Shown here: positions 6,617 through 27,978 of the stretch, in pieces
Layout of the letters: each line of letters opens with the position of its first letter
Position numbering within the stretch: the stretch's first letter is position 1
Origin: Escherichia phage EcWhh-1
Sequence record: MH791409.1
Reading direction: 5' to 3' (one strand)
Length of the DNA stretch: 64,000 nucleotides
Program-made: the position numbers and the translations under genes
The notes under the pieces: model-generated
Told to the model about the DNA's origin: nothing
The model's database searches: none
The model's input: only the letters and a program-made list of their open reading frames with translations

Positions 6617-7948
6617 TCAAACATAATAGGCATCAGTACGAGCACGGGTAATACTAACATAAGCCAGCTGTGAAGCTAAATTGGCATCTGCCATGTGCAT
6701 GCACGGAGTATAGATGAAACTGTTTTGGACAGTAAGACCCTGTGATTTATGAACAGTGCTCACCGGAAGAGCTCGAACCTTAGTGAACATTCGCTTAGCT
6801 TTCCAGAAATCAGCCCACTTAGGTTTCTTACCAGTTCCACGCATAGCCTTGTACTCAGTAGCCACCTTAGCCAAGAAATAATGGAACTTCTCAACTGAAG
6901 CCTCATCAATAACTTTCAAGTGTTCTACATAGTACTCGTCATCCTCATCAACAGATTCAACCTGGAGGTCCCAGTAATTAATCATCTGGCGAGTGCCTAC
7001 ATCCTTGGCAGACAAGAACAATGAGGTGTGGTTCACATCTAAAATACGAACCATCTGGCCGTTATTAAAAATGGTTTCAGAGAATTTCTTACCGTCGTAT
7101 TCAAGTTCCTTAATAAAAGGCTCTTGCATCACGAGGATTTCGCCCTTGATATAAGGCGCATCGGTTTCATAAAGCTTTTTACGAATAATACTATTCAGTT
7201 TTTCAACTGATTTATTTGTATAAGCAAACATCCTATTCTCAAACAAGGCATCGGCATCTTTTACGATGGAAAAATAATTCATCATAAAATCTTTTAAAGC
7301 CGTTTGAGATTTAAAACCATGGACACCGTGACCTTCGAATATACAATCTCGGAACCATCCACCATTACGGATTTCAGTAGCAACCTCAATGATGGGAGCA
7401 TTACTACGCATTACTTCAGTAAGGTGCAGCTGTTTAATTTTAGGATGAGTAAAGAATGGAGACAACTGAGGGCTTCCATCACTTCCTGGTTCTACAGGTT
7501 GTAACTGTGCTCGGTCGCCAATCCCTAGTACAGTGCACCATGGTGGAACCGAAGCTTCGATAATCTTAAACAGCTTGCCGTCAATCATTGAGCCTTCGTC
7601 GACCACAAGAACATTACATTTGCTCAAGTCAGGAGCTTCACGTTGTTCAAAAATATCCTGGTCTTCGTATGTAGTCGGGTTAATCTTTAAGATTCGGTGG
7701 ATTGTCGATGCTTCTTGGCCTGCGAGTTTCGACAATACCTTCTTGGCCGCGTGTGTAGGTGCGGTCAAAATAACTCCGAGTTCGCCATTCTTGACTAAGT
7801 GGTCAAGGATAAATTTAGTAAGGGTCGTTTTACCTGTACCCGCAGGACCATTCAATGTAATCCATTCGCCCTTACGTCGTTTAATAGCTTCAATGATTTC
7901 TTTAAAGGCCGTCCGTTGCCCAATATTCAAGTCTTCAAATGTAATCAT
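6617..7948 (-). CDS. dda: Dda SF1B DNA helicase
   Basis: 443 aa. Near-colinear with T4 Dda as I recall it (INGPAGTGKTT Walker A, STIHRILKINP, SNAPIIEVATEIRNG, ALPVSTVHKSQG). Confidence 0.95.
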   Translation of the reverse strand: MITFEDLNIGQRTAFKEIIEAIKRRKGEWITLNGPAGTGKTTLTKFILDHLVKNGELGVILTAPTHAAKKVLSKLAGQEASTIHRILKINPTTYEDQDIFEQREAPDLSKCNVLVVDEGSMIDGKLFKIIEASVPPWCTVLGIGDRAQLQPVEPGSDGSPQLSPFFTHPKIKQLHLTEVMRSNAPIIEVATEIRNGGWFRDCIFEGHGVHGFKSQTALKDFMMNYFSIVKDADALFENRMFAYTNKSVEKLNSIIRKKLYETDAPYIKGEILVMQEPFIKELEYDGKKFSETIFNNGQMVRILDVNHTSLFLSAKDVGTRQMINYWDLQVESVDEDDEYYVEHLKVIDEASVEKFHYFLAKVATEYKAMRGTGKKPKWADFWKAKRMFTKVRALPVSTVHKSQGLTVQNSFIYTPCMHMADANLASQLAYVSITRARTDAYYV

Positions 7949-8244
7949 GCCAATTTTACTCGCTTAACATATAAAGTATCTAAAATCAATTTTAATTCTC
8001 GGGCCCGTTCTTTGGTAGGAAAAACTGTTTTAGTTTCCCACTTATCAAACCACCACTTTCTTGGCGTGCACACTGTTTCAAGGCGTCCAAGCCGAAGATA
8101 TCTTTTTGTTGAGATTTCATAAGCCTCTAAAGCAGTGTCAGCCCCAATCTTTGTCGAATACAAAGTCACTTCACCGGCATCTTCTAACGGAATTTCATAC
8201 CCGTCTTTGTCCTTGTGAACCAATACGTATGCATAGTACATCAC
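7945..8244 (-). CDS. hypothetical protein, 99 aa
   Basis: Coding-strand ORF with a 4-nt overlap onto the dda start. Occupies the dda.1 position. Confidence 0.5.
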   Translation of the reverse strand: MMYYAYVLVHKDKDGYEIPLEDAGEVTLYSTKIGADTALEAYEISTKRYLRLGRLETVCTPRKWWFDKWETKTVFPTKERARELKLILDTLYVKRVKLA

Positions 8245-8245
8245 G

Positions 8246-8995
8246 TTAACCTCTAATCAGTGAAAAAATTGAAGCATTCAGCGGAAGACCTTTTTTCAAC
8301 TTCAATTTGTCAATAAAAGAAAGGTGTTCTAAACGCTCCAGACCTTGAATAATTTTATCATACATATCGTAACGCGTTTCTGCTTCAGACAATTTAAACT
8401 TGACACGCCAGTCAGGTCCACCAATTAAAGATTTAAGACCTTTTTCCATAGTACCGATTGAAGCATTAGAACCGTGGATACGGGCCTTAACTGCGATAAC
8501 AGAAGGAGTCTTATCAGTAGCTCCTGATTTAATAAGGTCTTTAAGACGTTTTTCACGTTTTTTAAGACCTCTTTGGGTATCTTTTATATTTTTAACGATT
8601 TTACGGATTTTATAATAATTATCAGGGGTAACTTTAAAACTATTAGGCATTTTAGAACTACCTGAAATACGAACTGCTAAACGAGTCTGAGCACGTTTCA
8701 GTTCATCAAGGGACAAATCGGCACGTAAGCTGTTATACTTAACTTTAACTGGGATTACATTACCCTCAATATAGCCGATATCGTTGTTAAAACGTTCAAA
8801 TGAAATCTTATCATTAACTGAATTTTCATCAAAGTACTCGCCTGAATAAGCGCACACTTTTTGTTCGAGAAGTCTACGAACATATTTACTAGACAGATTG
8901 AAGTCCTTACCACGTTTATAAGCAGAAGCTTTGGTGTGTTTGCGGCGGTTGTAAACCTTTAACTCAAATTCATCGTTAGTTTTAATAGTAGGCAT
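8246..8995 (-). CDS. Srd-position protein, 249 aa (possible Srd homologue)
   Basis: The size and the slot between modA and dda match T4 srd. That assignment rests on synteny and size only. Central block CAYSGEYF...SFERFNNDIGYIEGNVIPV is noted. Confidence 0.4.
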   Translation of the reverse strand: MPTIKTNDEFELKVYNRRKHTKASAYKRGKDFNLSSKYVRRLLEQKVCAYSGEYFDENSVNDKISFERFNNDIGYIEGNVIPVKVKYNSLRADLSLDELKRAQTRLAVRISGSSKMPNSFKVTPDNYYKIRKIVKNIKDTQRGLKKREKRLKDLIKSGATDKTPSVIAVKARIHGSNASIGTMEKGLKSLIGGPDWRVKFKLSEAETRYDMYDKIIQGLERLEHLSFIDKLKLKKGLPLNASIFSLIRG

Positions 8996-10846: not shown

Positions 10847-11337
10847 TAGTAACCACCGATAGGACCATAACCATACATACGAGCTCGTAACTTAGCATCA
10901 CGAATAGCTTCTTCGGTCGGGGTAAAACGCAAACCAATATCAAAGTGTTTCCAAATCTGACATTCTACCTCCGTCAGGTCTTCGACGGTAGAAATCAGAT
11001 AAGTACGACCTTTAAGACGTTCAGTAGCCATTCTATCTCTATCTTTATAGAAAATATCCATTGTTCCATCGGCATACGGGTCTGCCGGGTAACGATAGCC
11101 TTTGATATGCAAGGCTTGAGCCACACTAAAAGGGCACCCCTCAGCGACATCAACATTTTTGTTATGGTAAGCCTTCATCAGAATATTTTCTGGCAGCTTA
11201 ATATCTTTTAATCTTGTTTCTAACTGGGTTATAGAATTCATACCATTGTCGACAAAGATAAGACACGCCGTAGCATCATAAGGACGCGTTTGGCCTGATG
11301 AATCACGTACATGGAATTCGAGTTCATAGACTTTCAT
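10846..11337 (-). CDS. hypothetical protein, 163 aa (T4 mrh-like size and position)
   Basis: Coding-strand ORF. Any name would rest on synteny and size only. Confidence 0.5.
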
Positions 11338-11491
11338 TATGTTTTCCTCTTTTTAGTTTACCTACTAAAGGACCATCCGGAATTTTATTTTCCTGGATGT
11401 ATTTCTCGTTTTCTTCCATCATTTTACTACCAATTTTAAGAAGCAAATCCATTGCCTCTTTAGTACGTGCTTCAGCTTCTTCAATAGTCAT
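11324..11491 (-). CDS. hypothetical small protein, 55 aa
   Basis: Below cutoff. ATGA overlap with the upstream stop (11488-11491). The 3' end overlaps the next start. [31 protein letters not shown]... Confidence 0.45.
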
Positions 11492-11688
11492 GATTTATCC
11501 CCATAGATATCACGCATAATCCTAAGGGCCTCGCGTTCTAATTTCTTTTCGCGTTCGTCACGGATGCCTTTAAGAATCCATTCCTCTGATTCACGTTTCA
11601 TTTCTGCATTAGCTTGGTCTAACCAACCGTCATCAAGATAATCACCGGGACGGTCTAGCCAATCTTTAAGCCATGATAAAGGTTTCAT
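11488..11688 (-). CDS. hypothetical protein, 66 aa
   Basis: TAATG coupling at 11688. Charged and helical. Confidence 0.5.
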
Positions 11689-12023
11689 TAATCACACGAG
11701 CCGGACGATGAGTCACAGCTTCCTGAGTCAGAATAAGACGAATCGCCGGTCCAAGAACTAACGGCAGCCGCTACTACAATAGGAGTGGTATCAATATAAT
11801 TTTGCCTTTGCGCTCGCTCGTCTTTTAATTTTTCTAAACGGGCTTTTAATTCGTCGGCATTTAAGCTCGAAGCGTGAGACCCAACATTGCCTGCTTTTTC
11901 AGGCTGACGGATAACTTCTTCCATCATACCGTCGCCTACATAAACATATTCCTTCGGGCCTGAGATAGGAACTACACCTTCGCCAGGAGTGGTCTTGAAA
12001 AAATTCTTAAGCCACTGAATCAT
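11688..12023 (-). CDS. hypothetical protein, 111 aa, Ser/Cys-rich C-terminus
   Basis: Tail VSSWTGDSSYSDSGSCDSSSGSCD. 4-nt overlap with the upstream gene. Confidence 0.5.
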   Translation of the reverse strand: MIQWLKNFFKTTPGEGVVPISGPKEYVYVGDGMMEEVIRQPEKAGNVGSHASSLNADELKARLEKLKDERAQRQNYIDTTPIVVAAAVSSWTGDSSYSDSGSCDSSSGSCD

Positions 12024-12229
12024 AGGAAACCTCGTTTAAATTCAACTTTATCAATATCATCAGTCTCGTGACGGATTTCGGCGTTAAATTCGATAGAACC
12101 GTCTTCATGCATCATAAATGAATGGACAATAACTTCGGTATACCAAGGAGTATAGAAATACTTTTTCAATACGTGATTAGCGATAATTTCATCCAAAGTT
12201 TTATTTGGTTTAATCCAACGATTTAACAT
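12020..12229 (-). CDS. hypothetical protein, 69 aa
   Basis: Start moved to ATG 12229 (GAGGAG SD). The longer track ORF would run through its own promoter. Confidence 0.5.
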   Translation of the reverse strand: MLNRWIKPNKTLDEIIANHVLKKYFYTPWYTEVIVHSFMMHEDGSIEFNAEIRHETDDIDKVEFKRGFL

Positions 12230-12255
12230 AGTGTTCTCCTCTATAAGATACATCT

Positions 12256-12285
12256 ATCTTAACATGGCCTACTCGTAAAGTAAAC
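12256..12285 (-). promoter_or_regulatory. early-type promoter (weak -10)
   Basis: GTTTAC (12285-12280), 18 nt, TAAGAT (12261-12256). Lies directly downstream of the soc terminator. Confidence 0.4.
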
Positions 12286-12295
12286 TACTAAAACG

Positions 12296-12319
12296 AAAAA
12301 AGGAACCCGAAGGTTCCTT
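12296..12319 (-). terminator. rho-independent terminator after soc
   Basis: AAGGAACC-UUCG-GGUUCCUU followed by a U-run on the minus strand. Confidence 0.75.
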
Positions 12320-12323
12320 ATAA

Positions 12324-12557
12324 TTAAACAATATCGGTAGGCGTAAACATCGCCGCGTTCTTAGTTCGCCAATCGGCTGCATCAGTCACTACAGTAGTAT
12401 AGGCTGCAACGGCCGAAGGGAAAGTCTGATAATGAGCATTAGCAATACGATGCTCATTTGAATAGATTTCAAACGGAACTGAAACCTCAGTACCTTTAAC
12501 TTCTTTACCTTCACCAGCTGGATGCGTAAAGGTTTTGATATTAACGAAACCACCCAT
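12324..12557 (-). CDS. soc: small outer capsid protein Soc
   Basis: 77 aa. GFVNIKTF...ANAHYQTFPS... matches T4 and RB69 Soc as I recall them. An exact late promoter lies upstream. Confidence 0.9.
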   Translation of the reverse strand: MGGFVNIKTFTHPAGEGKEVKGTEVSVPFEIYSNEHRIANAHYQTFPSAVAAYTTVVTDAADWRTKNAAMFTPTDIV

Positions 12558-12588
12558 AATTAACTCCTTTGTTGTTTAATTACAGGTG

Positions 12589-12596
12589 TATTTATA
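12589..12596 (-). promoter_or_regulatory. late promoter TATAAATA for soc
   Basis: Exact TATAAATA on the minus strand, 31 nt upstream of ATG 12557 and just after the gene 56 stop. Confidence 0.7.
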
Positions 12597-12598
12597 AC

Positions 12599-13120
12599 TT
12601 AATAACCTCGGTCTTGACGAGCAAAGTTCTCGGCATTTTTCAGGTAATACAGTTTAAAGATTTCTTCAGCGGTCAGTCCAAGACCCTGGAACATATTCAG
12701 AACAAAGTGCAGAATATCAATCATTTCGAATTTAATTTCGAGCTGGTCTTCAGGAGACAAATCGTTAATCAGGGTTTCACGACGTTCAGCATGTTGAGCT
12801 TTCCAAGGCTTCCATACTGCAGATGCATCTTTTTCACCATTGCTCATACCACCAAGAGAAGTCAGAAGTTCACGGAATTCGTCATCAATATAATCTTTCT
12901 GGTTGCGAAGCCAATCGACAACTTCACCCGCAGTGGCCAAATCATCAGGATGACGATTATATTCAGGCTTATCTTTAGCTAAACGAACCTGCAAAGATTT
13001 CTGCATATCAAGCATAACCTGCAGAGGGTCTTTATCTTCGTGAATCAGAGCATTAAAATAAGCTTCTTCAGCTTTATCGGCACCGGCAATCAGTTGAGAA
13101 CATTCATTAAAATGAGCCAT
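12599..13120 (-). CDS. 56: dCTPase-dUTPase (dCTP pyrophosphatase)
   Basis: Start at ATG 13120 (MAHFNE, AAGGAAA SD). Strongly similar to T4 gp56 (PLQVMLDMQ, IDDEFRELLTSLG, EIFKLYYLKNAENFARQDRGY). Confidence 0.93.
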   Translation of the reverse strand: MAHFNECSQLIAGADKAEEAYFNALIHEDKDPLQVMLDMQKSLQVRLAKDKPEYNRHPDDLATAGEVVDWLRNQKDYIDDEFRELLTSLGGMSNGEKDASAVWKPWKAQHAERRETLINDLSPEDQLEIKFEMIDILHFVLNMFQGLGLTAEEIFKLYYLKNAENFARQDRGY

Positions 13121-18310: not shown

Positions 18311-18633
18311 TTCCACCACCTCTTAGATTTAATTTTATCCAGTTCTTCTTGTATTTGCATTGTAACACATTTTTCTACATGAAGCGCTAGCTCTTCTTTT
18401 CGGTCTTCGGAAGGTGTTCCGAAATCAACCGACACTTTTCCATCTTTCTCAATAACAATATTCATCACATAAACGATGTGAGCAGTGCCATCGGGTAAAG
18501 TAAGCATAATTTCCTGCTTAACAGAACCCATTGACTTACGGATTATATCTAATGATTTCTCATAATAACGAGGGTCACTAGGACCCTCTTCGGTATCTTT
18601 AACAAAATTATCTAAATCAGATAAATCAGTCAT
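18304..18633 (-). CDS. 40: gp40-position protein (head vertex assembly chaperone slot), 109 aa
   Basis: Lies between uvsX and 41 as in T4. Overlaps both neighbours. Confidence 0.5.
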   Translation of the reverse strand: MTDLSDLDNFVKDTEEGPSDPRYYEKSLDIIRKSMGSVKQEIMLTLPDGTAHIVYVMNIVIEKDGKVSVDFGTPSEDRKEELALHVEKCVTMQIQEELDKIKSKRWWKW

Positions 18634-19807
18634 GGTCGCTCACAAAATTCATGTTTTCTAAATCGCTTTCGATGTCAGCAGCGCTTTGGGTATTTCCACC
18701 TAATTTAACAGAAACGTTCTTAGAGACACGAGAGTTAATAAGGTCGTTCACTGCATCGTCAACTTCTTTAATAGAATTAATTGCACCGAGCTTATACTTA
18801 TTCTCGATTGCTTCACGGAACGGAGCATGTTTAAACAGTGGTCCCCAGAACTCAACACAATCGGTAGCTTTAGCACGCCATGCTTTTTCTTCTTGAACCA
18901 TTTCACCTGTGGTTTCGTCAAGGAATGCACGATTATACCACCCAGCTTTAGGTTTCACGACAAAGCCGATATCAGTAGCCATTTCAAGCAATCCACTGAA
19001 TGGGTCGATACCGCCTTCAAAGTTAACGGTGATAGGGAACGTTGACTTCTCTTTAACCGTACGAGATTTCTCAGCCTTAAGTGTGAAGTCATAACCAGTG
19101 AGCTCAGTACCATCTTTAACCTGGCGTTTAGAGATAAAGAACACGGTAGAAGCAGAGTACAGAATACCAGTACCACCACCCATAATCTCTTTAGGATACA
19201 TTCCACCAATTTCCATAGCCGTGTGGTTAATTGCTACACAAGGGATATCCTTGATGGTCAGATAAGGTGTTACGATACGGAACAGAGATTTCAGTGACTT
19301 AGCACGAGTCATATCACCTACAACTTTCTCGTTCAAAGCATCTTCGGTTTCTTTCTTAGAAGCAGTGTTACCAATGGAGTCGATAAAGATAATAACCTTT
19401 TCGCCACGAGTAATTTCTTCTAACTGGTTGGTCATATCAACTTTAAGCTGTTCGACTGACTGGATTGGTGTATGAACCACACGTTCCAAATCAACACCCA
19501 TCGAACGGAAATAAGATTCTGAAGCACCGAACTCAGAGTCATAGAACAAGCAAATTGCGTCTGGATATTTCTTCATATATGCCGCAACCATAGTTAATCC
19601 AAACAACGTTTTAAAGTGTTTAGACGGTGCAGCAAAGATTGTCAAACCTGATTGTAAGCCTGCATTCAACGCACCACCCAATGCAATATTAAGCATAGGA
19701 ATACGAGTAGGAACTTCGTCACGACCATTAAACAATTTAGATTTGGTCAGGTCGGCAGTCATTTTAGAAGTAGAAGCTTTAATCAAACGGGATTTTAAAT
19801 CAGACAT
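18626..19807 (-). CDS. uvsX: UvsX RecA-like recombinase
   Basis: 393 aa. Walker A region AAPSKHFKT. T4 UvsX-like throughout. Synteny. Confidence 0.93.
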   Translation of the reverse strand: MSDLKSRLIKASTSKMTADLTKSKLFNGRDEVPTRIPMLNIALGGALNAGLQSGLTIFAAPSKHFKTLFGLTMVAAYMKKYPDAICLFYDSEFGASESYFRSMGVDLERVVHTPIQSVEQLKVDMTNQLEEITRGEKVIIFIDSIGNTASKKETEDALNEKVVGDMTRAKSLKSLFRIVTPYLTIKDIPCVAINHTAMEIGGMYPKEIMGGGTGILYSASTVFFISKRQVKDGTELTGYDFTLKAEKSRTVKEKSTFPITVNFEGGIDPFSGLLEMATDIGFVVKPKAGWYNRAFLDETTGEMVQEEKAWRAKATDCVEFWGPLFKHAPFREAIENKYKLGAINSIKEVDDAVNDLINSRVSKNVSVKLGGNTQSAADIESDLENMNFVSDHD

Positions 19808-19887: not shown

Positions 19888-20016
19888 CTTAATTCCTCGG
19901 TTGATAGCCTTATCGACTATCTTCCGAACTTCTCGTTTCTCGAGCCACACTAATAATAGCAAGCCTCCGAAAGAGAATAATAACAAACCTATAAAAAGCA
20001 ATAGAGGACCTAGCAT
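19885..20016 (-). CDS. single-pass membrane micro-protein, 43 aa
   Basis: Below cutoff. GAGGA SD. ATG 20016 overlaps the upstream stop by 7 nt. MLGPLLLFIGLLLFSFGGLLLLVWLEKREV... Confidence 0.45.
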   Translation of the reverse strand: MLGPLLLFIGLLLFSFGGLLLLVWLEKREVRKIVDKAINRGIK

Positions 20017-20903
20017 ACTACGTCCTCATAACGTGGCATTTCGTATTCAGAATGAATATTGGCACCGAAATAAATGAATTCAGCCAGACCAGGATGGAAT
20101 ACTAAACCTGGGTTCTCATGATAAATGATATGTGGTCTTGATTTCAGAATTTGATAATATTCAACCTTACTCGGTTTGAATTTAATAATCTCTACATCAG
20201 GACGATAGTCTTCGCGCTTAAATGAATCATTAGGGTCGGTGATATAAAGACGAGCACCTTCAGCGGCAGCTTGGTCTACAACTCTTTCGAATTGATAACA
20301 CTTATCCGAAATACGGAATGGATGGAAAATACCATCAATTTTAATAGGCGCTAGACCTTCAGAGTAACGCTCAATTACTGCAGGATTAATTACCTTTTGG
20401 TCTACAAAAATCTTATCAGAGGATGCACCTCGTGACATCAGGACGTCTTTCTGGCATTGATTCAAGACTGTAGTATAAAGTGAACGTTCAACTGAAGCCA
20501 CATCAATATCAATGAACTCGTCGATATAATAACGAGGAACTTCAGGGTCCATTGTGATATTAAAGTTGAATTGTACAGTATGAGCACCATCATAACCGGT
20601 GATATCGGTCACCAGTCCTGAGCAATCATAGTATTCGATTAGTGAATCGACTACAAACTCATTTTCAGACCAGAAATGTTTACGGGTTTCATAAGCATTT
20701 TCTTTATACCAAAGTGGTACGAAATTCAGTTCTGGGAATAATTCAATGCATTCTTTGATATCGCTCGAATTTCTAGGATAAGCCAGATAATCACCTGGAC
20801 GAGCACGATTTAAATGGAGTTGAAAATTACCGTCCTTAAGGACGGCATATTCACCTGTTTCGTAACTACGCATACTGAAAATAGGAACGATAAACAAACT
20901 CAT
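20010..20903 (-). CDS. orphan 297-aa protein in the beta-glucosyltransferase slot; candidate hmC glycosyltransferase
   Basis: ATGA-coupled to gene 42. Not alignable by eye to T4 beta-gt, except for a loose GT-B-like block IFHPFRISDKCYQFERVV versus T4 GGSFRSGQRESKMVEF. Confidence 0.35.
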   Translation of the reverse strand: MSLFIVPIFSMRSYETGEYAVLKDGNFQLHLNRARPGDYLAYPRNSSDIKECIELFPELNFVPLWYKENAYETRKHFWSENEFVVDSLIEYYDCSGLVTDITGYDGAHTVQFNFNITMDPEVPRYYIDEFIDIDVASVERSLYTTVLNQCQKDVLMSRGASSDKIFVDQKVINPAVIERYSEGLAPIKIDGIFHPFRISDKCYQFERVVDQAAAEGARLYITDPNDSFKREDYRPDVEIIKFKPSKVEYYQILKSRPHIIYHENPGLVFHPGLAEFIYFGANIHSEYEMPRYEDVVC

Positions 20904-21598
20904 TTCAGGAAACCTCGGACGTAGTCAAAATCACGTTCAAACACGTGTGCACTTACCATGGTGTGGGAATATGTACCTAAACCGACACCACACTGTTCAG
21001 CAATAAATGCCATCAGTTTACCCTGCAGATAGAAATCCAGCTGCATAACAACGGCGCAGTTTTGTGAACGCATATGAGTGTGTGCATACAGACGTCCATC
21101 ACGAATATAATATGTTACCGAATCGGTACACGGATATTCTAGGGATTCGTCAGAATCAAGGAGGGCTTGGTCTTGTTCTTGGAGAATTTGGAACACAACT
21201 CGTCTCGAGTTAGGCTTTTCTTTAAGCTCTTTAAGTAGGGCTGGGAGTTGGGCCACAATTCGAGGGCCATAGAAAGTGTTGAAGTTTGCAGGCAATACGT
21301 CACTTTTCGGCTTATCAATGAACTTAGCAACATTAGGGTATTCCTTAAATGCTTCGGCAGCGTCAGTACCACCAGAAATCATAAATTTCCAAAAGGATTC
21401 GGCATATTCATAACTAATACGATTGATACGTGGGTCGGTGAATTTATAGGTGCTTGCATCCAGTACTTCTACCGAAGCAGAACCAATTTCATAACAACGT
21501 CCGATACGAGAATCAACTGCAAACTGTGGAGCTTCCAGGATTTCTTCGTTCATTTGTTTAAATGCATTTTCAAAACTAACAGCGGTAATGTGTTTCAT
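20900..21598 (-). CDS. 42: thymidylate-synthase-family deoxypyrimidylate hydroxymethylase (divergent gp42)
   Basis: 232 aa. Conserved blocks: KPNSRR, YPCTDSVTYYIRDGRL, HMRSQN, SAHVF. Lies at the T4 gene 42 position, but is much more diverged from T4 gp42 than its neighbours are from their T4 counterparts. Confidence 0.7.
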   Translation of the reverse strand: MKHITAVSFENAFKQMNEEILEAPQFAVDSRIGRCYEIGSASVEVLDASTYKFTDPRINRISYEYAESFWKFMISGGTDAAEAFKEYPNVAKFIDKPKSDVLPANFNTFYGPRIVAQLPALLKELKEKPNSRRVVFQILQEQDQALLDSDESLEYPCTDSVTYYIRDGRLYAHTHMRSQNCAVVMQLDFYLQGKLMAFIAEQCGVGLGTYSHTMVSAHVFERDFDYVRGFLK

Positions 21599-22131
21599 TT
21601 ATTCACCTTATTTTCAATATATTCGTTCAGACGTTTTAATTCTACCATATCAACATTAAGCAAATTATTATGGCCGTCATGATTTAAGATTTTAAACACG
21701 TTTTCAAAACATGTTTCGTATTGCCGGATAGTTAGGTTGAACTCATCTTTGGTTAATTTAATAAGGTCGTCTTCGAAGTCTTCGTCTAATGGATTGCGAG
21801 TTAAAATAACCTCGATAACGTTAAATTCGGATTTAAACCCTTTCCAATCTTCCAGTTCTACATAAGGGTCCATTTCACCACGAAGGAATCCTGAGTAAAC
21901 AATATTACTTGGATAACCACGGTCAAGGATATAAACGAAATTAGGGTCTAAAAACTTATACAGAGTTTCAACTAAAGCCTTATCGTTATCAGTTCCTAAT
22001 GAAATACACTTGCCATTAATCTTTTTAGGAAAATCAATAAGGCGGTATTTCTTATTGGATAACAGATTTTTAATTAAAGTGGACTTCCCGGAATTATCCG
22101 GGCCGTCTATAACAATGATTTTTGGATTCAT
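21595..22131 (-). CDS. P-loop (thymidylate/dNMP kinase-like) kinase
   Basis: 178 aa. Walker A VIDGPDNSGKST, DRG motif. ATGA overlaps at both ends. Confidence 0.55.
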   Translation of the reverse strand: MNPKIIVIDGPDNSGKSTLIKNLLSNKKYRLIDFPKKINGKCISLGTDNDKALVETLYKFLDPNFVYILDRGYPSNIVYSGFLRGEMDPYVELEDWKGFKSEFNVIEVILTRNPLDEDFEDDLIKLTKDEFNLTIRQYETCFENVFKILNHDGHNNLLNVDMVELKRLNEYIENKVNK

Positions 22132-22511
22132 GGATGATAGGCCTTATAACTATCAAGAGTTCCTTCACGAACCATTTCTTTAAAGTGGTCAGGACGGATT
22201 GCTCGGTCATCGATGATAAAAGTATAACTCGGCTTATGCGTAAGCAGATTATGATATTTCAATCCAATCTTTTCAAGGTTCTTAACCAATGCAGGAACTA
22301 CTTCAACCAAGATTCGACCTGGGCCACATGAAGTCATGCCACGGGCAGTGAATAATGTAATCTCGTACCCTTCATCATAAAGCTTATTAATCATGGACAC
22401 CATTTCGGTGTCCGGTTTAAAGTTCTCATAATCACGGTCATGGTTCCAAATCGTGATTGTGTTATCGATATCAAAACATAAATGTGGCTTATTTTCTACT
22501 CGATGCGACAT
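22128..22511 (-). CDS. HAD-superfamily phosphatase
   Basis: Motif I FDIDNTIT, motif II LFTAR, motif III KPSYTFIIDDR. ATG 22511 is TAATG-coupled (alternative start ATG 22526). Confidence 0.6.
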   Translation of the reverse strand: MSHRVENKPHLCFDIDNTITIWNHDRDYENFKPDTEMVSMINKLYDEGYEITLFTARGMTSCGPGRILVEVVPALVKNLEKIGLKYHNLLTHKPSYTFIIDDRAIRPDHFKEMVREGTLDSYKAYHP

Positions 22512-24184
22512 TAAATTTTCTTCCATTGTTTGTGGAGTTCAGTAGAACCTGTAGGTTTATATTTTACACCAGTTTCCTGGTCAAGCAAAACCCACTTATC
22601 AGGACAACGAGTAATAATTTGAGCCGTGATAGGGTCACGAACTTCATCGACAAATTCACCAGTAATAAGCTTACGCTTATGAGGATGCCGCTTCAGCAGC
22701 ACACTCAGTTGATACAAACCGTTATAATAAGCACCCAGAGCTTTCAGAGGGTTATTCTTAAAGTAACCTGCCAGCGCCATCCAAATAACAGCAATCCAGA
22801 GCTTGTGCTTAAATGTGCACATAGGAATATCGTCTAAAGGCATAACCTTTTCGATATCAACGAATACACGAGTTCCGTTACGAGTTAATCCACCCCATAG
22901 AGGGTCTGAGTTAAATTTGTCATAGCCATCGATAGAATAAAGCACCTTAGCTTCATCATAAATCGCAGGGCCTTTAGAACTATTACCGAAATAACCACGT
23001 GGGTCGATGATTTTAATATCACCTTCGTCCGACAGCATAATATTACTGTAGTGCGGGTCGCCATGAATAAGTTGGTACGGTTCTTTATGTTCAGACAGAA
23101 TTTCTAGTGCATGGCGGAGAAGTTTTTCGGGGTCGCCTACTTTGAAATCGTTAACATAGGTAATGCCCTGTGGAGCAAAGCCTTCAATCAATCCGGCAAT
23201 AGAAGCATTACGAATAAGGACCTTGTCCAACACTTCTTTCTTAACATCGGAATACCATTGCTCATCGGACGGGTTATCGATAGTTCCACCGAATGAACGT
23301 AATGCACTAATGACCTTATAAACCATGAGGACTTTAGTTTCTTTGGACATAAACCGGTAGGCATCTGCCATGGTACGACCAAAGATACGTTCCATTTTAA
23401 TGAATTCGCCTGGAGAAAAGTCTACAATGCTAGGAACGAATTCAGAATCAATAGAATTATACCAATTGATTTCTTTAGATTGAATTTCTTTACCTAATTC
23501 GTTAGTTGGTACTTTAATAGCCAGATTCTCGGTGAACTCTAATTTATTAAATTCACGGTTAATTTCAGAATCTTCATGGGCCTTGGCAAGTTTCAATTTG
23601 TCACCGACATCAACTACAAAATCCAGTTTACGTTCAGTCAAATAGACCATTGAATCCAGGTTATCAGCAAGGTCTTCGCCATAATTAGAACGGTCGAAAC
23701 CTGTCCAATTGGCTACCTGATACAAACCAACTACACCGCCACCGGTACCAATTTCACGTAAGTACGGTTCTTCAAATGTAAAGCGACAGTCAGTTCCATA
23801 GGTATAACAATAGTCGTTACCCCATTCAACTTTATGACCGATAGGAATGATGTCACACCAGTTAAACAGGACATTATGGCCAATGATATCTTCGGCAATG
23901 CAATCGATAGCATGAGCTGAACCATTAGCAACATCAACGTTACGAATAGTGAATTTAGGCTTATCACCAGTAATCATGTTAATGGATTTAATATAGCCTT
24001 TAACGAGGTCGTTAAATTTGCTGTGAATAACCAGAATAATTTCATCTGATTGGTTACTATACAAATCATACAAATGTTTTAATACCGTATGTTGTTTGTA
24101 GTTAACCAATACCTTTGGGATTTCGTTAGTAATTGGATACAACCGTGAGCCAAGACCTGCGCCTAAAATAACAACCTTTTTCAT
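22511..24184 (-). CDS. bifunctional sugar-1-phosphate nucleotidyltransferase / APH-choline-kinase-like kinase
   Basis: Start at ATG 24184 (GAGGAA SD). N-terminal VILGAGLGSRLYPIT...PKVLV (GxGxRL NTase). C-terminal LIHGDPHYSNIM...IIDPRG (Brenner HGDxxxxN plus Dxx). Confidence 0.65.
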   Translation of the reverse strand: MKKVVILGAGLGSRLYPITNEIPKVLVNYKQHTVLKHLYDLYSNQSDEIILVIHSKFNDLVKGYIKSINMITGDKPKFTIRNVDVANGSAHAIDCIAEDIIGHNVLFNWCDIIPIGHKVEWGNDYCYTYGTDCRFTFEEPYLREIGTGGGVVGLYQVANWTGFDRSNYGEDLADNLDSMVYLTERKLDFVVDVGDKLKLAKAHEDSEINREFNKLEFTENLAIKVPTNELGKEIQSKEINWYNSIDSEFVPSIVDFSPGEFIKMERIFGRTMADAYRFMSKETKVLMVYKVISALRSFGGTIDNPSDEQWYSDVKKEVLDKVLIRNASIAGLIEGFAPQGITYVNDFKVGDPEKLLRHALEILSEHKEPYQLIHGDPHYSNIMLSDEGDIKIIDPRGYFGNSSKGPAIYDEAKVLYSIDGYDKFNSDPLWGGLTRNGTRVFVDIEKVMPLDDIPMCTFKHKLWIAVIWMALAGYFKNNPLKALGAYYNGLYQLSVLLKRHPHKRKLITGEFVDEVRDPITAQIITRCPDKWVLLDQETGVKYKPTGSTELHKQWKKI

Positions 24185-24244
24185 TATCTGTTCCTCAAGT
24201 GAATGTAGGTACATTATACACTATTTTTAATAAATTTCTATTGC

Positions 24245-24745
24245 TTAAATCTTATCTTTACCGTATTCCATGCACTGTTCTACTGCAGCAGGCACTTTGG
24301 TCTTAAGCTTGTTGATTTGTTTCTTATAATCACGAGCCTTATCGAAGCTCTCGGTTTCGAGCATTTCGTAATAACGAGCCTCGTGGACAGAAATCTGTAG
24401 ATTGATATGGTTTACACACATGGCATACAGTTTCTGCTTTTTGTACAAATCATCTTGGCGCTTCATTTCTGCCTGGTGTTTGGCTAGTACCGCTTCACGC
24501 TTAGACTCTTGTTCACGTTGGAATTCGATTTCCCTTTGAGCATATTTTGCACAGTTATTACCACATTGATTATTAGCTCGGGTGTACACAAGTCCAGAAC
24601 CGGCACGGAATTTCATTTCGCCGTCGAATTGTTTCTGTTCAGCTGCGATACGAGCTTTACCAACTTCATCAGCAGAAACTGCATCACCGTATTGGACTGC
24701 GCAACCTGATAGGAGCATACTCATTGCGATAATTAACTTTTTCAT
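24245..24745 (-). CDS. predicted lipoprotein, 166 aa
   Basis: MKKLIIAMSMLLSG|C lipobox. Coiled-coil-like, charged mature part. Confidence 0.6.
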   Translation of the reverse strand: MKKLIIAMSMLLSGCAVQYGDAVSADEVGKARIAAEQKQFDGEMKFRAGSGLVYTRANNQCGNNCAKYAQREIEFQREQESKREAVLAKHQAEMKRQDDLYKKQKLYAMCVNHINLQISVHEARYYEMLETESFDKARDYKKQINKLKTKVPAAVEQCMEYGKDKI

Positions 24746-25186: not shown

Positions 25187-27898
25187 TTAAAAGTCGAACA
25201 TATCAAATAATGTTGCTTTTTTCTCGTAGTCGATTTTAGCAGACTCGGTAAAACCAGTTAGAGGCTTGATAAAGGTCTTTTGGAACAGTACGTTGTAGTC
25301 CATCCAACGGAGGACTTGGTCACGAATCTGAACTGGGAGTTCAATACCTGACGGCCATGCCATACAGGCTTCACCAAACGGGTTGCCTTCTTTAAGTGGC
25401 AGTACATATACCTTTTCACCGTCAACGATACGAGGCATAGTCAAATCACCAGCAGAAGCACGCATGTAAGCTAAGCAACCTTTGATGTGGTACGGGCATT
25501 TAGAACCAGGGAATCCGCCTTCATTATATTTCTCGATGTTGTTAGCACTGGATACTGCTGCAATGCTTACATAGTCCAGTTCGTTAAATTCCTTATTAAA
25601 CTGTTTGAAATATTCTTGCAAAGACGCCTCGCCTTCTTGAAGCATACGACGGATACATTCTTTCAGAGCTTTCTGAACAGCTTTAGGTGTACTTGATTTC
25701 TGAGTTTCGAGACCCATGATTTTCAAGTGTGGTTCGGCATAACGAGTGCCTTCCATGTCCCAAACGTTCAGTGCATAACGTTTCTTGCCTGTCCAGAATC
25801 CACCAAGACCTTTAGAACCAAGTGGAGGACCTGCGATAGCTTCTCGGTCCATGAACATCAAGTGTTGTTTGTTGTTCATGTATTCGCACATCTCACGGAA
25901 GCCTGCATCAATAGTCGGTTCCATACGTTCACGTGCAAATTTATCTAAGAAGTCGACCCAGTGGTTAGTGTCACGGAATTTATCTTCGCCTACTTTATTG
26001 ATGATTGCATCTGCCTTAACATAAATGGAGTCAGTATCACCATAGAGCACGAACTTCTGGTTTTCAGTCTTACACACGCTATTCAGATATTCGTTAACCT
26101 TACGTTCAATCCATTGGAGAGCCATTTGACCAAACAGTGTGATTGCAGTTGCGTTCCTGAGGTCGTAATAACGAAACCATACGTTACCAAGTGCACCATA
26201 AAGGGAGTTGATAAGCAACTTACGGTTAATCTGAGCAGTGTTACCTGCAACTTCGGTACGTTCAGCTCTGAACAACATTTCTTTTAAAGAAGAGGCCGAC
26301 AGTTTTTTAATCTGGGCTTTTATTTCATCAGAGAAGTCGAAACGGTAATCGATATCCAGTGGACTATCAACAGACAGATTAGGATTTTCCAATGCTTCTT
26401 TAATTAACTCGCCATTACGTTGGGCTGCAAGCATATAACCTTTATGTTCTTTACGTTGTAAGAACACCTTCGTGATTTCTGTAGGAATCACACCATCACG
26501 GTCTTTATAGTACATCATGCCGTTAGGAGAGCAACTGTAGGTGTCGCTAGGACGCGGAGCAGTTCCGGCAATATATTCATGTATCGGTGCGTTGGCGAAT
26601 GTGCCTGCGATGGTCTCTGGGCTTATATTCACTTGTCGAATGATACTCGGGTACAGAGATGTAAGGTCGAAACTCATTACATATTTGTACGCGTTAGGAA
26701 TAGGTTCCTTAACGAAAGCACCTGGATAAGGTTGAACCGCATGCGATTTGGCCTGAGGAATAACTTTACCCTGTTCTTTAAGGCTATTAAAGATAATAGC
26801 GTCCCAAGTCTTAATTGGACTGAACACCGACTGAATCTGCATCTTAGCATAATAACCCATGTCCAGACTAAGAAGAATGAACTGGCGTTTCATATCAATC
26901 TGCACAACACGATATACGTCGATAATGTTATAGGAAATATATCGTTGGTGGTTCGTCTCACGTAACTTGGAGATAGGACCATCATATTTCAACTTACCTA
27001 CTTTCAATTCATATTCAGAAACATAATCCAGAGAATAAGAAGGCTGGTTAGTAAAGCTGAATTTTTTATAAAGGTCGATATAATCCAGAACAGAGATACC
27101 GAACAGTGTAATAATTTCGCGAACACCGTACATATTCTCGATAACTTTAACACGAGTCTTACGATGTGGGCTTAATCGCTTAGCAGTGTTCTCACCAAAC
27201 AGATTTTTCAGACGGTTATAAACGTATGGCACGTCAAATGATTCAACGTTCCATCCAGTCAAAATCACAGGAGTTTTCTGTTGCCAGAAATTCAGATACT
27301 CAAGCATCATTTCTTCTTCAGAATTAAACGGAAGATAAACGATTTTGTCAATGATTTCTTGTGGAACTTCGTCACCACCTTCGTCTTGGAGTTTCTCAGC
27401 GATTTTAATCGACCACTCTTCGACCGTACCATAAGGTGAAACTAAAAGGTCAAATACATAGAATTTATCATCAATCGAGTCGTAGTGAGTAATGGCATCG
27501 ATAGGATGTTTAGCCTGGGCAGGTTCAGGGAATCCATCAGGGGATGTTACCTCGATGTCGAAGTTAGCAATACGAATCTTGGAAGAATCATACTTGATTT
27601 CTTTACGATAGGTATCAGACAAATAGGCTAATTTATAGTCGTCCATACCAAGGGCTTCGAGACCCATATCGTCCATGCGCTTCATCCACTGAGAAGCATC
27701 GCGCATTGAATCGAATTCTTTCTTAACACAACCCTTACCGTAGATGTCAATATATTTTACGGCTTGCTCTGGGTTAGCGTGCATAAACATTGTAGGCTTG
27801 TAAGGAACTTCACGACTACGTTCGTTACCATTTTTATCGATGTAACGTTCGAGAATATTATCACCGATTTGTTCGACTGTCAAATAGAATTCTTGCAT
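25187..27898 (-). CDS. 43: DNA polymerase (family B)
   Basis: Start at ATG 27898 (MQEFYLTVEQIGD, AAGGAA SD). Very close to RB69/T4 gp43 as recalled (FDIEV exo I, SLYPSII, YGDTDS). Confidence 0.97.
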   Translation of the reverse strand: MQEFYLTVEQIGDNILERYIDKNGNERSREVPYKPTMFMHANPEQAVKYIDIYGKGCVKKEFDSMRDASQWMKRMDDMGLEALGMDDYKLAYLSDTYRKEIKYDSSKIRIANFDIEVTSPDGFPEPAQAKHPIDAITHYDSIDDKFYVFDLLVSPYGTVEEWSIKIAEKLQDEGGDEVPQEIIDKIVYLPFNSEEEMMLEYLNFWQQKTPVILTGWNVESFDVPYVYNRLKNLFGENTAKRLSPHRKTRVKVIENMYGVREIITLFGISVLDYIDLYKKFSFTNQPSYSLDYVSEYELKVGKLKYDGPISKLRETNHQRYISYNIIDVYRVVQIDMKRQFILLSLDMGYYAKMQIQSVFSPIKTWDAIIFNSLKEQGKVIPQAKSHAVQPYPGAFVKEPIPNAYKYVMSFDLTSLYPSIIRQVNISPETIAGTFANAPIHEYIAGTAPRPSDTYSCSPNGMMYYKDRDGVIPTEITKVFLQRKEHKGYMLAAQRNGELIKEALENPNLSVDSPLDIDYRFDFSDEIKAQIKKLSASSLKEMLFRAERTEVAGNTAQINRKLLINSLYGALGNVWFRYYDLRNATAITLFGQMALQWIERKVNEYLNSVCKTENQKFVLYGDTDSIYVKADAIINKVGEDKFRDTNHWVDFLDKFARERMEPTIDAGFREMCEYMNNKQHLMFMDREAIAGPPLGSKGLGGFWTGKKRYALNVWDMEGTRYAEPHLKIMGLETQKSSTPKAVQKALKECIRRMLQEGEASLQEYFKQFNKEFNELDYVSIAAVSSANNIEKYNEGGFPGSKCPYHIKGCLAYMRASAGDLTMPRIVDGEKVYVLPLKEGNPFGEACMAWPSGIELPVQIRDQVLRWMDYNVLFQKTFIKPLTGFTESAKIDYEKKATLFDMFDF

Positions 27899-27956
27899 TT
27901 CATTTCCTTTATAGACGAGTGATTGTCTTTTGTTTGTTGATGAATCATTATACTCC

Positions 27957-27978
27957 AAAAAGGGACTTCGGTCCCTTT
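27957..27978 (-). other. 8-bp hairpin upstream of gene 43
   Basis: AAAGGGAC-CGAA-GUCCCUUU then UUGGAG-TATAAT (27952-27947). May be a weak terminator, a leader hairpin or a promoter context. Confidence 0.4.

Follow-up and report, generated by a model that had tools for sequence, protein, structure and literature searches.

A thymidylate-kinase-like protein and a HAD phosphatase in the 5-hydroxycytosine arabinosylation operon of Escherichia phage EcWhh-1

Two small genes of Escherichia phage EcWhh-1 (sequence record MH791409.1; the whole 64,000-nucleotide stretch analysed here is called the window) lie on the minus strand directly upstream of a thymidylate synthase (TS) homologue and encode a P-loop kinase resembling thymidylate kinase (Tmk) and a HAD phosphatase. 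Both belong to a five-gene operon (AfhE-like gene, HAD, kinase, hydroxylase and arabinosyltransferase) whose product is DNA carrying arabinosylated 5-hydroxycytosine (5hoC). Within this operon, the kinase may be dedicated to deoxycytidine monophosphate (dCMP) modified at C5, namely 5-hydroxy-dCMP (5hodCMP), with the HAD protein acting as an AfhF-type phosphatase; we give this joint reading an even chance of being right. Synteny and gene fusions point to a link of the kinase to the nucleotide step of the pathway rather than to the sugar step.

The proposed pathway has two branches. In the sugar branch, the bifunctional protein encoded upstream would phosphorylate host-made D-arabinose-5-phosphate at C1, the HAD phosphatase would then strip the 5-phosphate, and the N-terminal domain of the bifunctional protein would uridylylate the arabinofuranose-1-phosphate to UDP-arabinofuranose (UDP-Araf). 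In the nucleotide branch, the Tmk-like kinase would use ATP to convert 5hodCMP, the product of the adjacent TS-like enzyme, to 5-hydroxy-dCDP (5hodCDP), and host Ndk would make the triphosphate for the phage polymerase. In T4-like phages the Tmk-like kinase would work beside a gp1-type deoxynucleoside monophosphate (dNMP) kinase, partly redundantly with it.

The module is already known: it is the published 5hoC arabinosylation cluster of RB69, DLP3 and HY126, and the genes at these coordinates have been described. RB69p045, a “thymidylate kinase homologue”, was listed in a comparative study as presumably belonging to the modification pathway (Nikulin et al. 2021, PMC8056088), and both the kinase and the HAD genes are placed in the cytosine-arabinosylation cluster by Lee et al. 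(NAR 2026, PMC13326640), who name the Dhakaviruses among the genera with a syntenic cluster. Over about 4.5 kb around the two genes the identity is 99.6% to Escherichia phage UP19 and 98% to JS98 and JS10, and by this likeness the window comes from a Dhakavirus (Straboviridae, Tevenvirinae), a T4-type phage resembling JS98 and UP19. What the window yields is mainly a correction of annotation, with a hydroxylase in place of a hydroxymethylase and a phosphatase in place of a “phosphoheptose isomerase”.

A small kinase family distinct from canonical Tmk

The kinase has 178 amino acids (aa), with the P-loop VIDGPDNSGKST at residues 7-18 (GPDNSGKS at 10-17) and DRG at residues 70-72, motifs that a preliminary description of this DNA had picked out. 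The Tmk fold, the acidic-residue P-loop GxxxxGK[ST] and the DR motif are all present, and the AlphaFold model has a pLDDT of 95. In Pfam, NCBIfam and structural searches its matches are solely of the P-loop nucleoside monophosphate (NMP) kinase type, with no GHMP or sugar-kinase similarity. Its scores against the curated Tmk models fall below the cut-offs (PF02223, Thymidylate_kin, 15.6 bits against 27; TIGR00041, dTMP kinase, 18.3 bits against 83.25), and the public annotation “thymidylate kinase” derives from its match to phrog_761 (E 1.5e-39). When 1.84 billion cluster representatives were searched exhaustively with phmmer, 62 proteins came back at E<=1e-3, 34 of them at E<=1e-10, and no canonical Tmk was reached; the kinase belongs to a small distinct family and is not a canonical Tmk. 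Searched against the PDB, a 36-sequence profile of this family finds SPbeta YorR first (1.3e-10), followed by thymidylate kinases at 1e-7 to 1e-8. Canonical Tmk and YorR (PDB 2AXP/3KB2) share with the kinase the fold, the P-loop Asp, the FP(K/E) and DR motifs and a Ser and an aromatic residue after DR.

Across the 36 members, G10, D12, G15, K16, D70, R71, N76 and D121 are invariant and K36, S75, V78, Y79, R112, D122, N132 and Y138 nearly so. By hhalign, D70-R71 falls on the Tmk DR motif, and S75 and Y79 fall on S101 and F105 of human TMPK, which are deoxyribose-side residues. In established Tmk structures the P-loop Asp contacts the 3'-OH, and the P-loop Asp of the kinase would correspond to it. 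The protein keeps the features for binding a deoxynucleoside monophosphate. The thymine-stacking Phe and O4-binding Arg (human F72 and R76) are not conserved across the 36 members in either the HMMER or the hhalign alignment, and in the base-binding helix the two are shifted against each other by one column. An Arg-to-Asp switch in base recognition, which would argue for cytosine, was dropped as a candidate because the two alignments are one column apart at that place. In place of the Arg-rich LID stands a short acidic hairpin that is conserved, [FY]xDDxIxL, and the P-loop has Asn13 where an Arg could stand; R112 may serve as the LID arginine.

The kinase has no homology to T4 gp1 (1DEK/1DEL). 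It is the orthologue of RB69p045 (37.9% identity over 169 aa, E 4e-31, the single match in the window; 38-40% in comparisons over about 165 residues), and the JS98 annotation calls its gene “RB69 orf045c-like”. A second nucleotide-kinase-like enzyme had been suspected in the preliminary description, and a look-up of gp1 elsewhere agrees with it: JS98 has a gp1 orthologue at 73517-74278 (E 5e-67 to the T4 gp1 structure 1DEK), a position beyond the window, and tblastn finds no gp1 within the 64 kb. The kinase is a genuine extra nucleotide-kinase-like enzyme besides the gp1 orthologue.

The kinase accompanies a dCMP 5-hydroxylase

The gene next to the kinase had been described as a hydroxymethylase, and this had to be revised: its sequence makes it a dCMP 5-hydroxylase of the flavin-dependent kind. 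In an alignment to E. coli ThyA with checked numbering, the TS homologue carries C146, L143E, D169N and N177D, and D169N in ThyA numbering, together with N177D and L143E, is the predictive hydroxylase signature (Lee et al., PMC13326640). It is 80% identical to RB69 gp48, which, like DLP3 gp80, converts dCMP to 5hodCMP with O2 and flavin (Lee et al., NAR 2026, PMC13326640). Among solved structures it matches the crystallised dCMP 5-hydroxylases PDB 9IQU/9IQC/9IR2 at E about 1e-126 (1.7e-126 for 9IQU/9IQC), against 1.1e-5 for T4 gp42 (1B49). Public records label this gene (20900-21598) variously thymidylate synthase or dCMP hydroxymethylase.

In tblastn searches of 50,697 phage records (hydroxylase at E<=1e-25, HAD at a coverage of at least 80%), 343 records are positive for the kinase, 345 for a D169N-type hydroxylase and 344 for the HAD; the T4 gp42 hydroxymethylase (E ~1e-5) is too distant to fall among the 345. 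The counts for the three genes are equal in Escherichia (176), Acinetobacter (57), Shigella (15), Serratia (9), Enterobacter (9), Proteus (7) and Yersinia (6) phages, and Klebsiella phages have 25 kinase, 25 HAD and 26 hydroxylase records, so that kinase and hydroxylase agree for nine of the ten genera listed. Given these matching counts, the kinase is absent from phages without a D169N-type hydroxylase. With 343 kinase records against 345 and scores below the Tmk cut-offs, the earlier suggestion of a dedicated, module-specific extra kinase holds up.

The position of the kinase shifts relative to the sugar genes and stays with the hydroxylase and the first transferase, as seen in RB69 and in metagenomic cassettes. 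RB69 has the order polymerase, arabinose-5-phosphate isomerase (API), AfhE, HAD, U32-like gene, hydroxylase, transferase, kinase and uvsX, with the kinase last, whereas in Dhakaviruses the kinase stands between HAD and hydroxylase. In Klebsiella phage kv_tblp8 (AfhE, HAD, kinase, U32-like, hydroxylase, transferase) a U32-peptidase-like gene separates kinase and hydroxylase, and the Dhakavirus order looks like this one minus that gene. The viral-contig loci L012-L017 hold hydroxylase (54-55% identity), transferase (39-40%) and kinase, and at L013 and L017 no AfhE or HAD lies within 10 kb either side of the kinase cassette. Transferase and kinase adjoin in L012-L017, L022, L025 and L027 and again on the contigs of the family members P0033, P0031 and P0017, all shorter than 2 kb; scans of viral contigs with the single proteins P0043, P0017, P0020, P0037 and P0035 gave zero loci. 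On non-T4 backbones, a D169N/N177D TS homologue is followed by a kinase fusion in L005 (then FMN reductase, SIS isomerase and AfhE-like gene), in L024, and in L025/L026 (then GT4-like gene, radical SAM and PolA).

Two of the kinase-family proteins, P0057 (L004:268-1251) and P0068 (L010:10001-10960), combine the kinase and a TS-like domain in one polypeptide. In both the TS-like domain keeps D169 and has N177D, and by these residues it is of the dCMP type and probably not a hydroxylase. The fusions make a Rosetta-stone argument that the kinase uses the product of a TS homologue. As the sugar route is complete without the Tmk-like kinase and the kinase stays with the hydroxylase, the kinase is tied to the nucleotide branch.

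Several neighbouring features of these metagenomic loci were also recorded. The L013 cassette is preceded by a Flavodoxin_2-type reductase (7771-8265), and this gene and an FMN_red gene (L005:11068-11613) directly adjoin D169N TS homologues in their metagenomic phages, which fits flavin-dependent hydroxylation. The distant family members P0035, P0042, P0043, P0047, P0051 and P0062 are fusions of about 320 aa to an MBD4-like HhH-GPD DNA-glycosylase domain, for which MBD4 is the closest solved structure (E 1e-9) and in which G-x-G-K-Y-x-x-D-S (HhH) and D-K-E-L are invariant; in their genomic contexts (L005:10001-11074, L024:1446-2390 and L025:6205-7173) each adjoins a D169N TS homologue. P0071 (L006:10001-11035) joins the kinase to a UDG-superfamily domain; a methyltransferase and a Gtf3-like glycosyltransferase come next, and no TS homologue lies within 10 kb. 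Beside the kinase and TS fusion in L010, at 10967-12903, are a protein of 335 aa whose N-terminus carries the dinucleotide-binding motif GGGLAGL and an NT5C-like HAD nucleotidase of 329 aa, after which comes ThyX; this neighbourhood may be another uncharacterised base-modification cassette.

The five-gene operon and its surroundings

The kinase and HAD genes lie on the minus strand at the positions that the preliminary description gave. Together with their neighbours and two further features of the window they are:

21595-22131, minus strand: Tmk-fold P-loop kinase, 178 aa, orthologue of RB69 orf045 and DLP3 gp78 (“nucleotide kinase”), proposed C5-modified-dCMP kinase
22128-22511, minus strand: HAD phosphatase, 127 aa, orthologue of AfhF and RB69 gp51, predicted arabinofuranose-1,5-bisphosphate 5-phosphatase
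20900-21598, minus strand: TS homologue, 232 aa, 5-hydroxy-dCMP synthase (dCMP 5-hydroxylase) by its sequence
20010-20903, minus strand: predicted first DNA arabinosyltransferase, 297 aa, orthologue of RB69 gp46:47
22511-24184, minus strand: bifunctional enzyme like AfhE and RB69 gp52:53, 557 aa, N-terminal sugar-1-phosphate nucleotidyltransferase and C-terminal APH-type kinase
12602-13120, minus strand: gp56 dCTPase, 100% identical to JS98 gp56, supplies dCMP and removes dCTP
24213-24240, minus strand: sigma-70-like promoter match TAGAAA-16-TATAAT directly upstream of the five-gene block, weak evidence

All module genes are on the minus strand, flanked by DNA polymerase gp43 (25187-27958) and UvsX (18626-19807). 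The junctions of HAD with kinase, of kinase with TS homologue and of TS homologue with the next gene are each an ATGA stop/start overlap, and at the HAD start, which has the Shine-Dalgarno-like sequence GGAAGA, the ATG overlaps with the stop of the 557-aa gene (TAATG). The chain of overlaps makes the genes one translationally coupled block. In a promoter and terminator scan of the region, the total of sites is no higher than in shuffled sequence. The HAD start is ambiguous, with an alternative start five codons earlier at 22526 (132-aa ORF) and the longer form used in the JS98 annotation, and the AfhE-like ORF is open up to 24214, its coding sequence being limited to 24184 (Met11) as annotated in UP19; homology and the stop/start overlap favour Met6 (22511) for the HAD and Met11 (24184) for the AfhE-like gene.

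The ratio of nonsynonymous to synonymous substitution rates is 0.04 for the kinase and 0.03 for the HAD against phage IME08, and 0.10 and 0.06 against kv_tblp8; both are real genes under strong purifying selection and not chance ORFs. Between Dhakavirus and Mosigvirus (RB69), identity is 80% for the hydroxylase, 69% for the transferase, 62% for the HAD, 43-48% for the AfhE-like protein and 40% for the kinase, and 84-90% for the flanking polymerase and UvsX. This uneven divergence suggests mosaic exchange of parts of the module. A higher evolutionary rate of the kinase than of the other module genes was considered and rejected, since the AfhE-like protein is equally diverged from RB69 (43-48% against 40%) and mosaic exchange is therefore as likely as faster evolution of the kinase.

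Between imm and the AfhE-like gene, a 166-aa ORF (24245-24745, minus strand) begins with MKKLIIAMSMLLSGC, a lipoprotein signal with lipobox. It is JS98 orf43, has no informative family match, and sits where RB69 carries the API gene.

The HAD phosphatase and the supply of UDP-Araf

The full set of HAD motifs noted in the preliminary description is there, in the numbering of the 132-aa ORF: motif I DIDNT (19-23), motif II T60 (TAR), motif III K98 (THKP) and motif IV DD (106-107). The closest solved relative is PDB 9IQW, a “capsule biosynthesis protein” (E 5.3e-54 over residues 7-132), whose sequence is 100% identical to the RB69p051-type protein of many Mosigviruses; next comes V. cholerae 1XPJ (E 4.5e-12). 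The HAD is 61.6% identical to RB69p051 (RB69 gp51), and its gene is “orf051c-like” in the JS98 annotation. It has zero Pfam matches, its top NCBIfam match is TIGR01689 EcbF/BcbF (54.3 bits against a threshold of 162), and TIGR01662 (HAD-IIIA) gives 22.4 bits against 44.6. The public label “phosphoheptose isomerase” stems from PHROG (phrog_1238) and is wrong in kind, the protein being a phosphatase. In the account that Lee et al. give of He et al. 2026 (PMC13326640), HY126 AfhF is a Mg-dependent phosphatase converting arabinofuranose-1,5-bisphosphate to arabinofuranose-1-phosphate. From its orthology to RB69 gp51 and its match to 9IQW, the HAD is predicted to be an AfhF-type arabinofuranose-1,5-bisphosphate 5-phosphatase. 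The window protein has the same size as HY126 AfhF, RB69 gp51 and DLP3 gp81, the same position after the AfhE-like gene and the same motifs I-IV, with the difference that motif I is DIDNT here and DVDDC in 9IQW.

The AfhE-like protein has Pfam domains NTP_transferase (residues 13-110) and APH (356-427), matches phrog_4098 at E 1e-267 and is 43-48% identical to RB69p052/053. AfhE itself is bifunctional, an arabinose-5-phosphate 1-kinase and UDP-arabinose pyrophosphorylase, and with AfhF it covers the route from arabinose-5-phosphate through arabinose-1,5-bisphosphate and arabinose-1-phosphate to UDP-Araf (He et al. 2026, as reported by Lee et al., PMC13326640). Because the adjoining 557-aa gene has the AfhE architecture, the kinase partner of the HAD is its APH domain and not the Tmk-like protein. 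The pairing of kinase and HAD in the preliminary description thus gives way to a pairing of the HAD with the upstream nucleotidyltransferase/APH-kinase protein (He et al. via PMC13326640). A sugar-phosphorylating role for the Tmk-like kinase, also raised there, becomes unlikely with the sugar kinase step already filled, and so does a supply of NTPs from NDPs, since NMP-kinase folds do not make NTPs.

The same logic is known from the NDP-heptose pathway of GmhA, HldE (or HddA-HddC) and GmhB: isomerase, anomeric kinase, removal of the distal phosphate by a HAD, and nucleotidyltransferase. Lee et al. report a Foldseek match of the phage HAD to GmhB (PMC13326640). The HAD nevertheless scores below the HAD-IIIA/GmhB thresholds, so that the resemblance is functional and not one of family membership, and the anomeric kinase here is the APH-fold domain of the 557-aa protein and not a GHMP kinase. 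The heptose pathway holds no equivalent of the Tmk-like kinase. Of the comparison with HddA and GmhB that had been recommended, GmhB is apt in function for the HAD, but the analogy to HddA fails for the kinase, which has no GHMP fold.

The 297-aa transferase is 69% identical to RB69p047 (phrog_3891), and the role of RB69 gp46:47 as first arabinosyltransferase is a prediction of Lee et al. (PMC13326640). Neither the window nor positions 1-90000 of JS98 contain homologues of RB69 gp3 (the second arabinosyltransferase), gp50 (U32-peptidase-like) or gp55 (API), and the five-gene cluster of Dhakaviruses includes no flavin-reductase-type gene. The Dhakavirus module is a minimal five-gene version that presumably takes arabinose-5-phosphate from host KdsD/GutQ and uses a flavin reductase of the host. 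The missing gp3, gp50 and gp55 homologues suggest this dependence on KdsD/GutQ, and the module is predicted to yield mono-arabinosylation, possibly nothing beyond it.

Alternative substrates for the kinase

Several points weigh against a dedicated 5hodCMP kinase. The gp1-type kinase of RB69 converts 5hodCMP to 5hodCDP in vitro, and this kinase and the hydroxylase together suffice for 5hoC in E. coli DNA (Lee et al., PMC13326640), so that there is no strict need for a second one. The label of the Tmk-like kinase in that paper is just “nucleotide kinase” (PMC13326640), and the literature searched, which excluded He et al. 2026 and Mahler et al. 2025, contains no biochemical or genetic data for the family. 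The one-column disagreement in the base-binding helix leaves the base-recognising residues unassignable, the family is without a P-loop Arg and an Arg-rich LID, and the DNA-glycosylase-like fusions of some members could indicate a role at the DNA level. T4 gp1, for its part, carries out on C5-modified dCMP the same type of reaction as is proposed for the kinase, and the Tmk-like kinase is either a partner of the hydroxylase with higher capacity or specificity than gp1, or has another role. Such a role, namely action on arabinosylated 5hodCMP (a glycosylated deoxynucleoside triphosphate, dNTP, then being incorporated) or recognition of, or action on, 5-hydroxypyrimidines in DNA by the family, we consider unlikely.

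In the first of these forms, the kinase would phosphorylate a mononucleotide that is already glycosylated (5-O-arabinosyl-dCMP), gp1 would take 5hodCMP, and the first arabinose would be added before replication. The kinase adjoins the predicted first transferase in RB69 (gp45, gp46:47) and DLP3 (gp78, gp79) and in the L012-L017, L022, L025 and L027 cassettes, and a Tmk-like “nucleotide kinase” that may belong to the family adjoins a transferase in RL38J1 (214 and 215). Such a substrate would also explain why 5hoC phages constantly have an extra kinase although gp1 accepts 5hodCMP. The data of Lee et al. do not distinguish between a first arabinosylation at the nucleotide and at the DNA level, and single transferases with UDP-Araf are inactive on 5hoC-containing DNA (PMC13326640), which together leave room for a kinase of the arabinosylated nucleotide. 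Yet the fusions of kinase and TS-like domain tie the kinase to the TS product and not to the transferase, the second and third arabinoses are added at the DNA level (PMC13326640), glycosylation in T-even phages is post-replicative, and the polymerase would have to accept a bulky dNTP. Moreover, a Bas46 mutant deleted for the arabinosyltransferase, as the paper citing Mahler et al. relates it, was recovered and had become sensitive to defence; the transferase is evidently dispensable for growth, and sugar-free 5hoC would presumably be incorporated in that mutant. On balance a glycosylated substrate is decidedly unlikely.

It is improbable that the kinase is an ordinary dTMP kinase or a broad canonical dNMP kinase, kept because the gp1 of 5hoC phages shifted to 5hodCMP. 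Thymidylate kinases are its top structural and profile matches, its annotation through phrog_761 says the same, and divergence from T4 gp1 is noted for the RB69 and DLP3 homologues (Lee et al., PMC13326640). Against this stand the scores of 15.6 and 18.3 bits where 27 and 83.25 are needed, the exhaustive search with zero canonical Tmk among its 62 representatives, the thymine-contacting Arg and Phe unconserved in both alignments, the dCMP type (N177D) of the fused TS homologues, and a host Tmk and phage gp1 that already cover dTMP. In the 50,697 records the kinase is never in phages without the hydroxylase module, and a plain Tmk orthologue in phages lacking the module, the contrary case that the preliminary description had named, is not what these matching counts reveal.

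A role at the DNA level, in which the kinase would phosphorylate or recognise 5-hydroxypyrimidines (compare the phage 5-hydroxymethyluracil, 5-hmU, DNA kinases), or a non-catalytic role as scaffold in a nucleotide-synthesis complex, is very improbable. Six distant family members have the MBD4-like HhH-GPD glycosylase domain and one (P0071) the UDG-superfamily domain, and 5-hydroxycytosine and 5-hydroxyuracil are classical substrates of MBD4/UDG-type glycosylases. The window protein, however, consists of one compact NMP-kinase domain (178 aa) and lacks a DNA-binding module, its Tmk-type mononucleotide-binding motifs (FPK, DR, S..Y) are conserved, and no published step of the pathway needs a phosphorylated base (PMC13326640).

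Least credible of all is service in the sugar branch, whether in pentose phosphorylation or in regenerating uridine nucleotides for UDP-Araf: in the window the kinase comes directly after the AfhE-like gene and the HAD, with an ATGA overlap, but AfhE and AfhF fully cover the route from arabinose-5-phosphate to UDP-Araf (He et al. via PMC13326640), the UDP from glycosyl transfer needs Ndk and not an NMP kinase, GHMP or sugar-kinase similarity was not found in the searches above, and in RB69, L013 and L017 the kinase is separate from or without sugar genes, yet with hydroxylase and transferase.

Relation to other phages and significance

The closest comparison for a 5hodCMP kinase remains the “nucleotide kinase” of other glycosyl-5-hydroxycytosine clusters (RB69 gp45, DLP3 gp78 and RL38J1_214), which lies beside the 5hodCMP synthase (PMC13326640; PMC8056088). 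In Rhizobium phage RL38J1, which attaches hexoses and not arabinose, the Tmk-like protein stands beside both transferase and 5hodCMP synthase (PMC13326640); it may belong to the same family. T4 gp1 is the other point of reference, with the RB69 gp1-type enzyme phosphorylating 5hodCMP.

Arabinosyl-5-hydroxycytosine shields many T4-like phages that are candidates for therapy from restriction enzymes, glycosylase defences and CRISPR. The kinase is present in virtually every such phage and is the sole gene of the five-gene block without a worked-out or predicted role in the literature searched. Knowledge of its substrate would close the gap in the pathway, decide between nucleotide and DNA as the acceptor of the first sugar, and give a marker family for phages with C5-modified cytosine in metagenomes. 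If the kinase does handle an arabinosylated nucleotide, this would break the T-even rule that DNA is glycosylated after replication.

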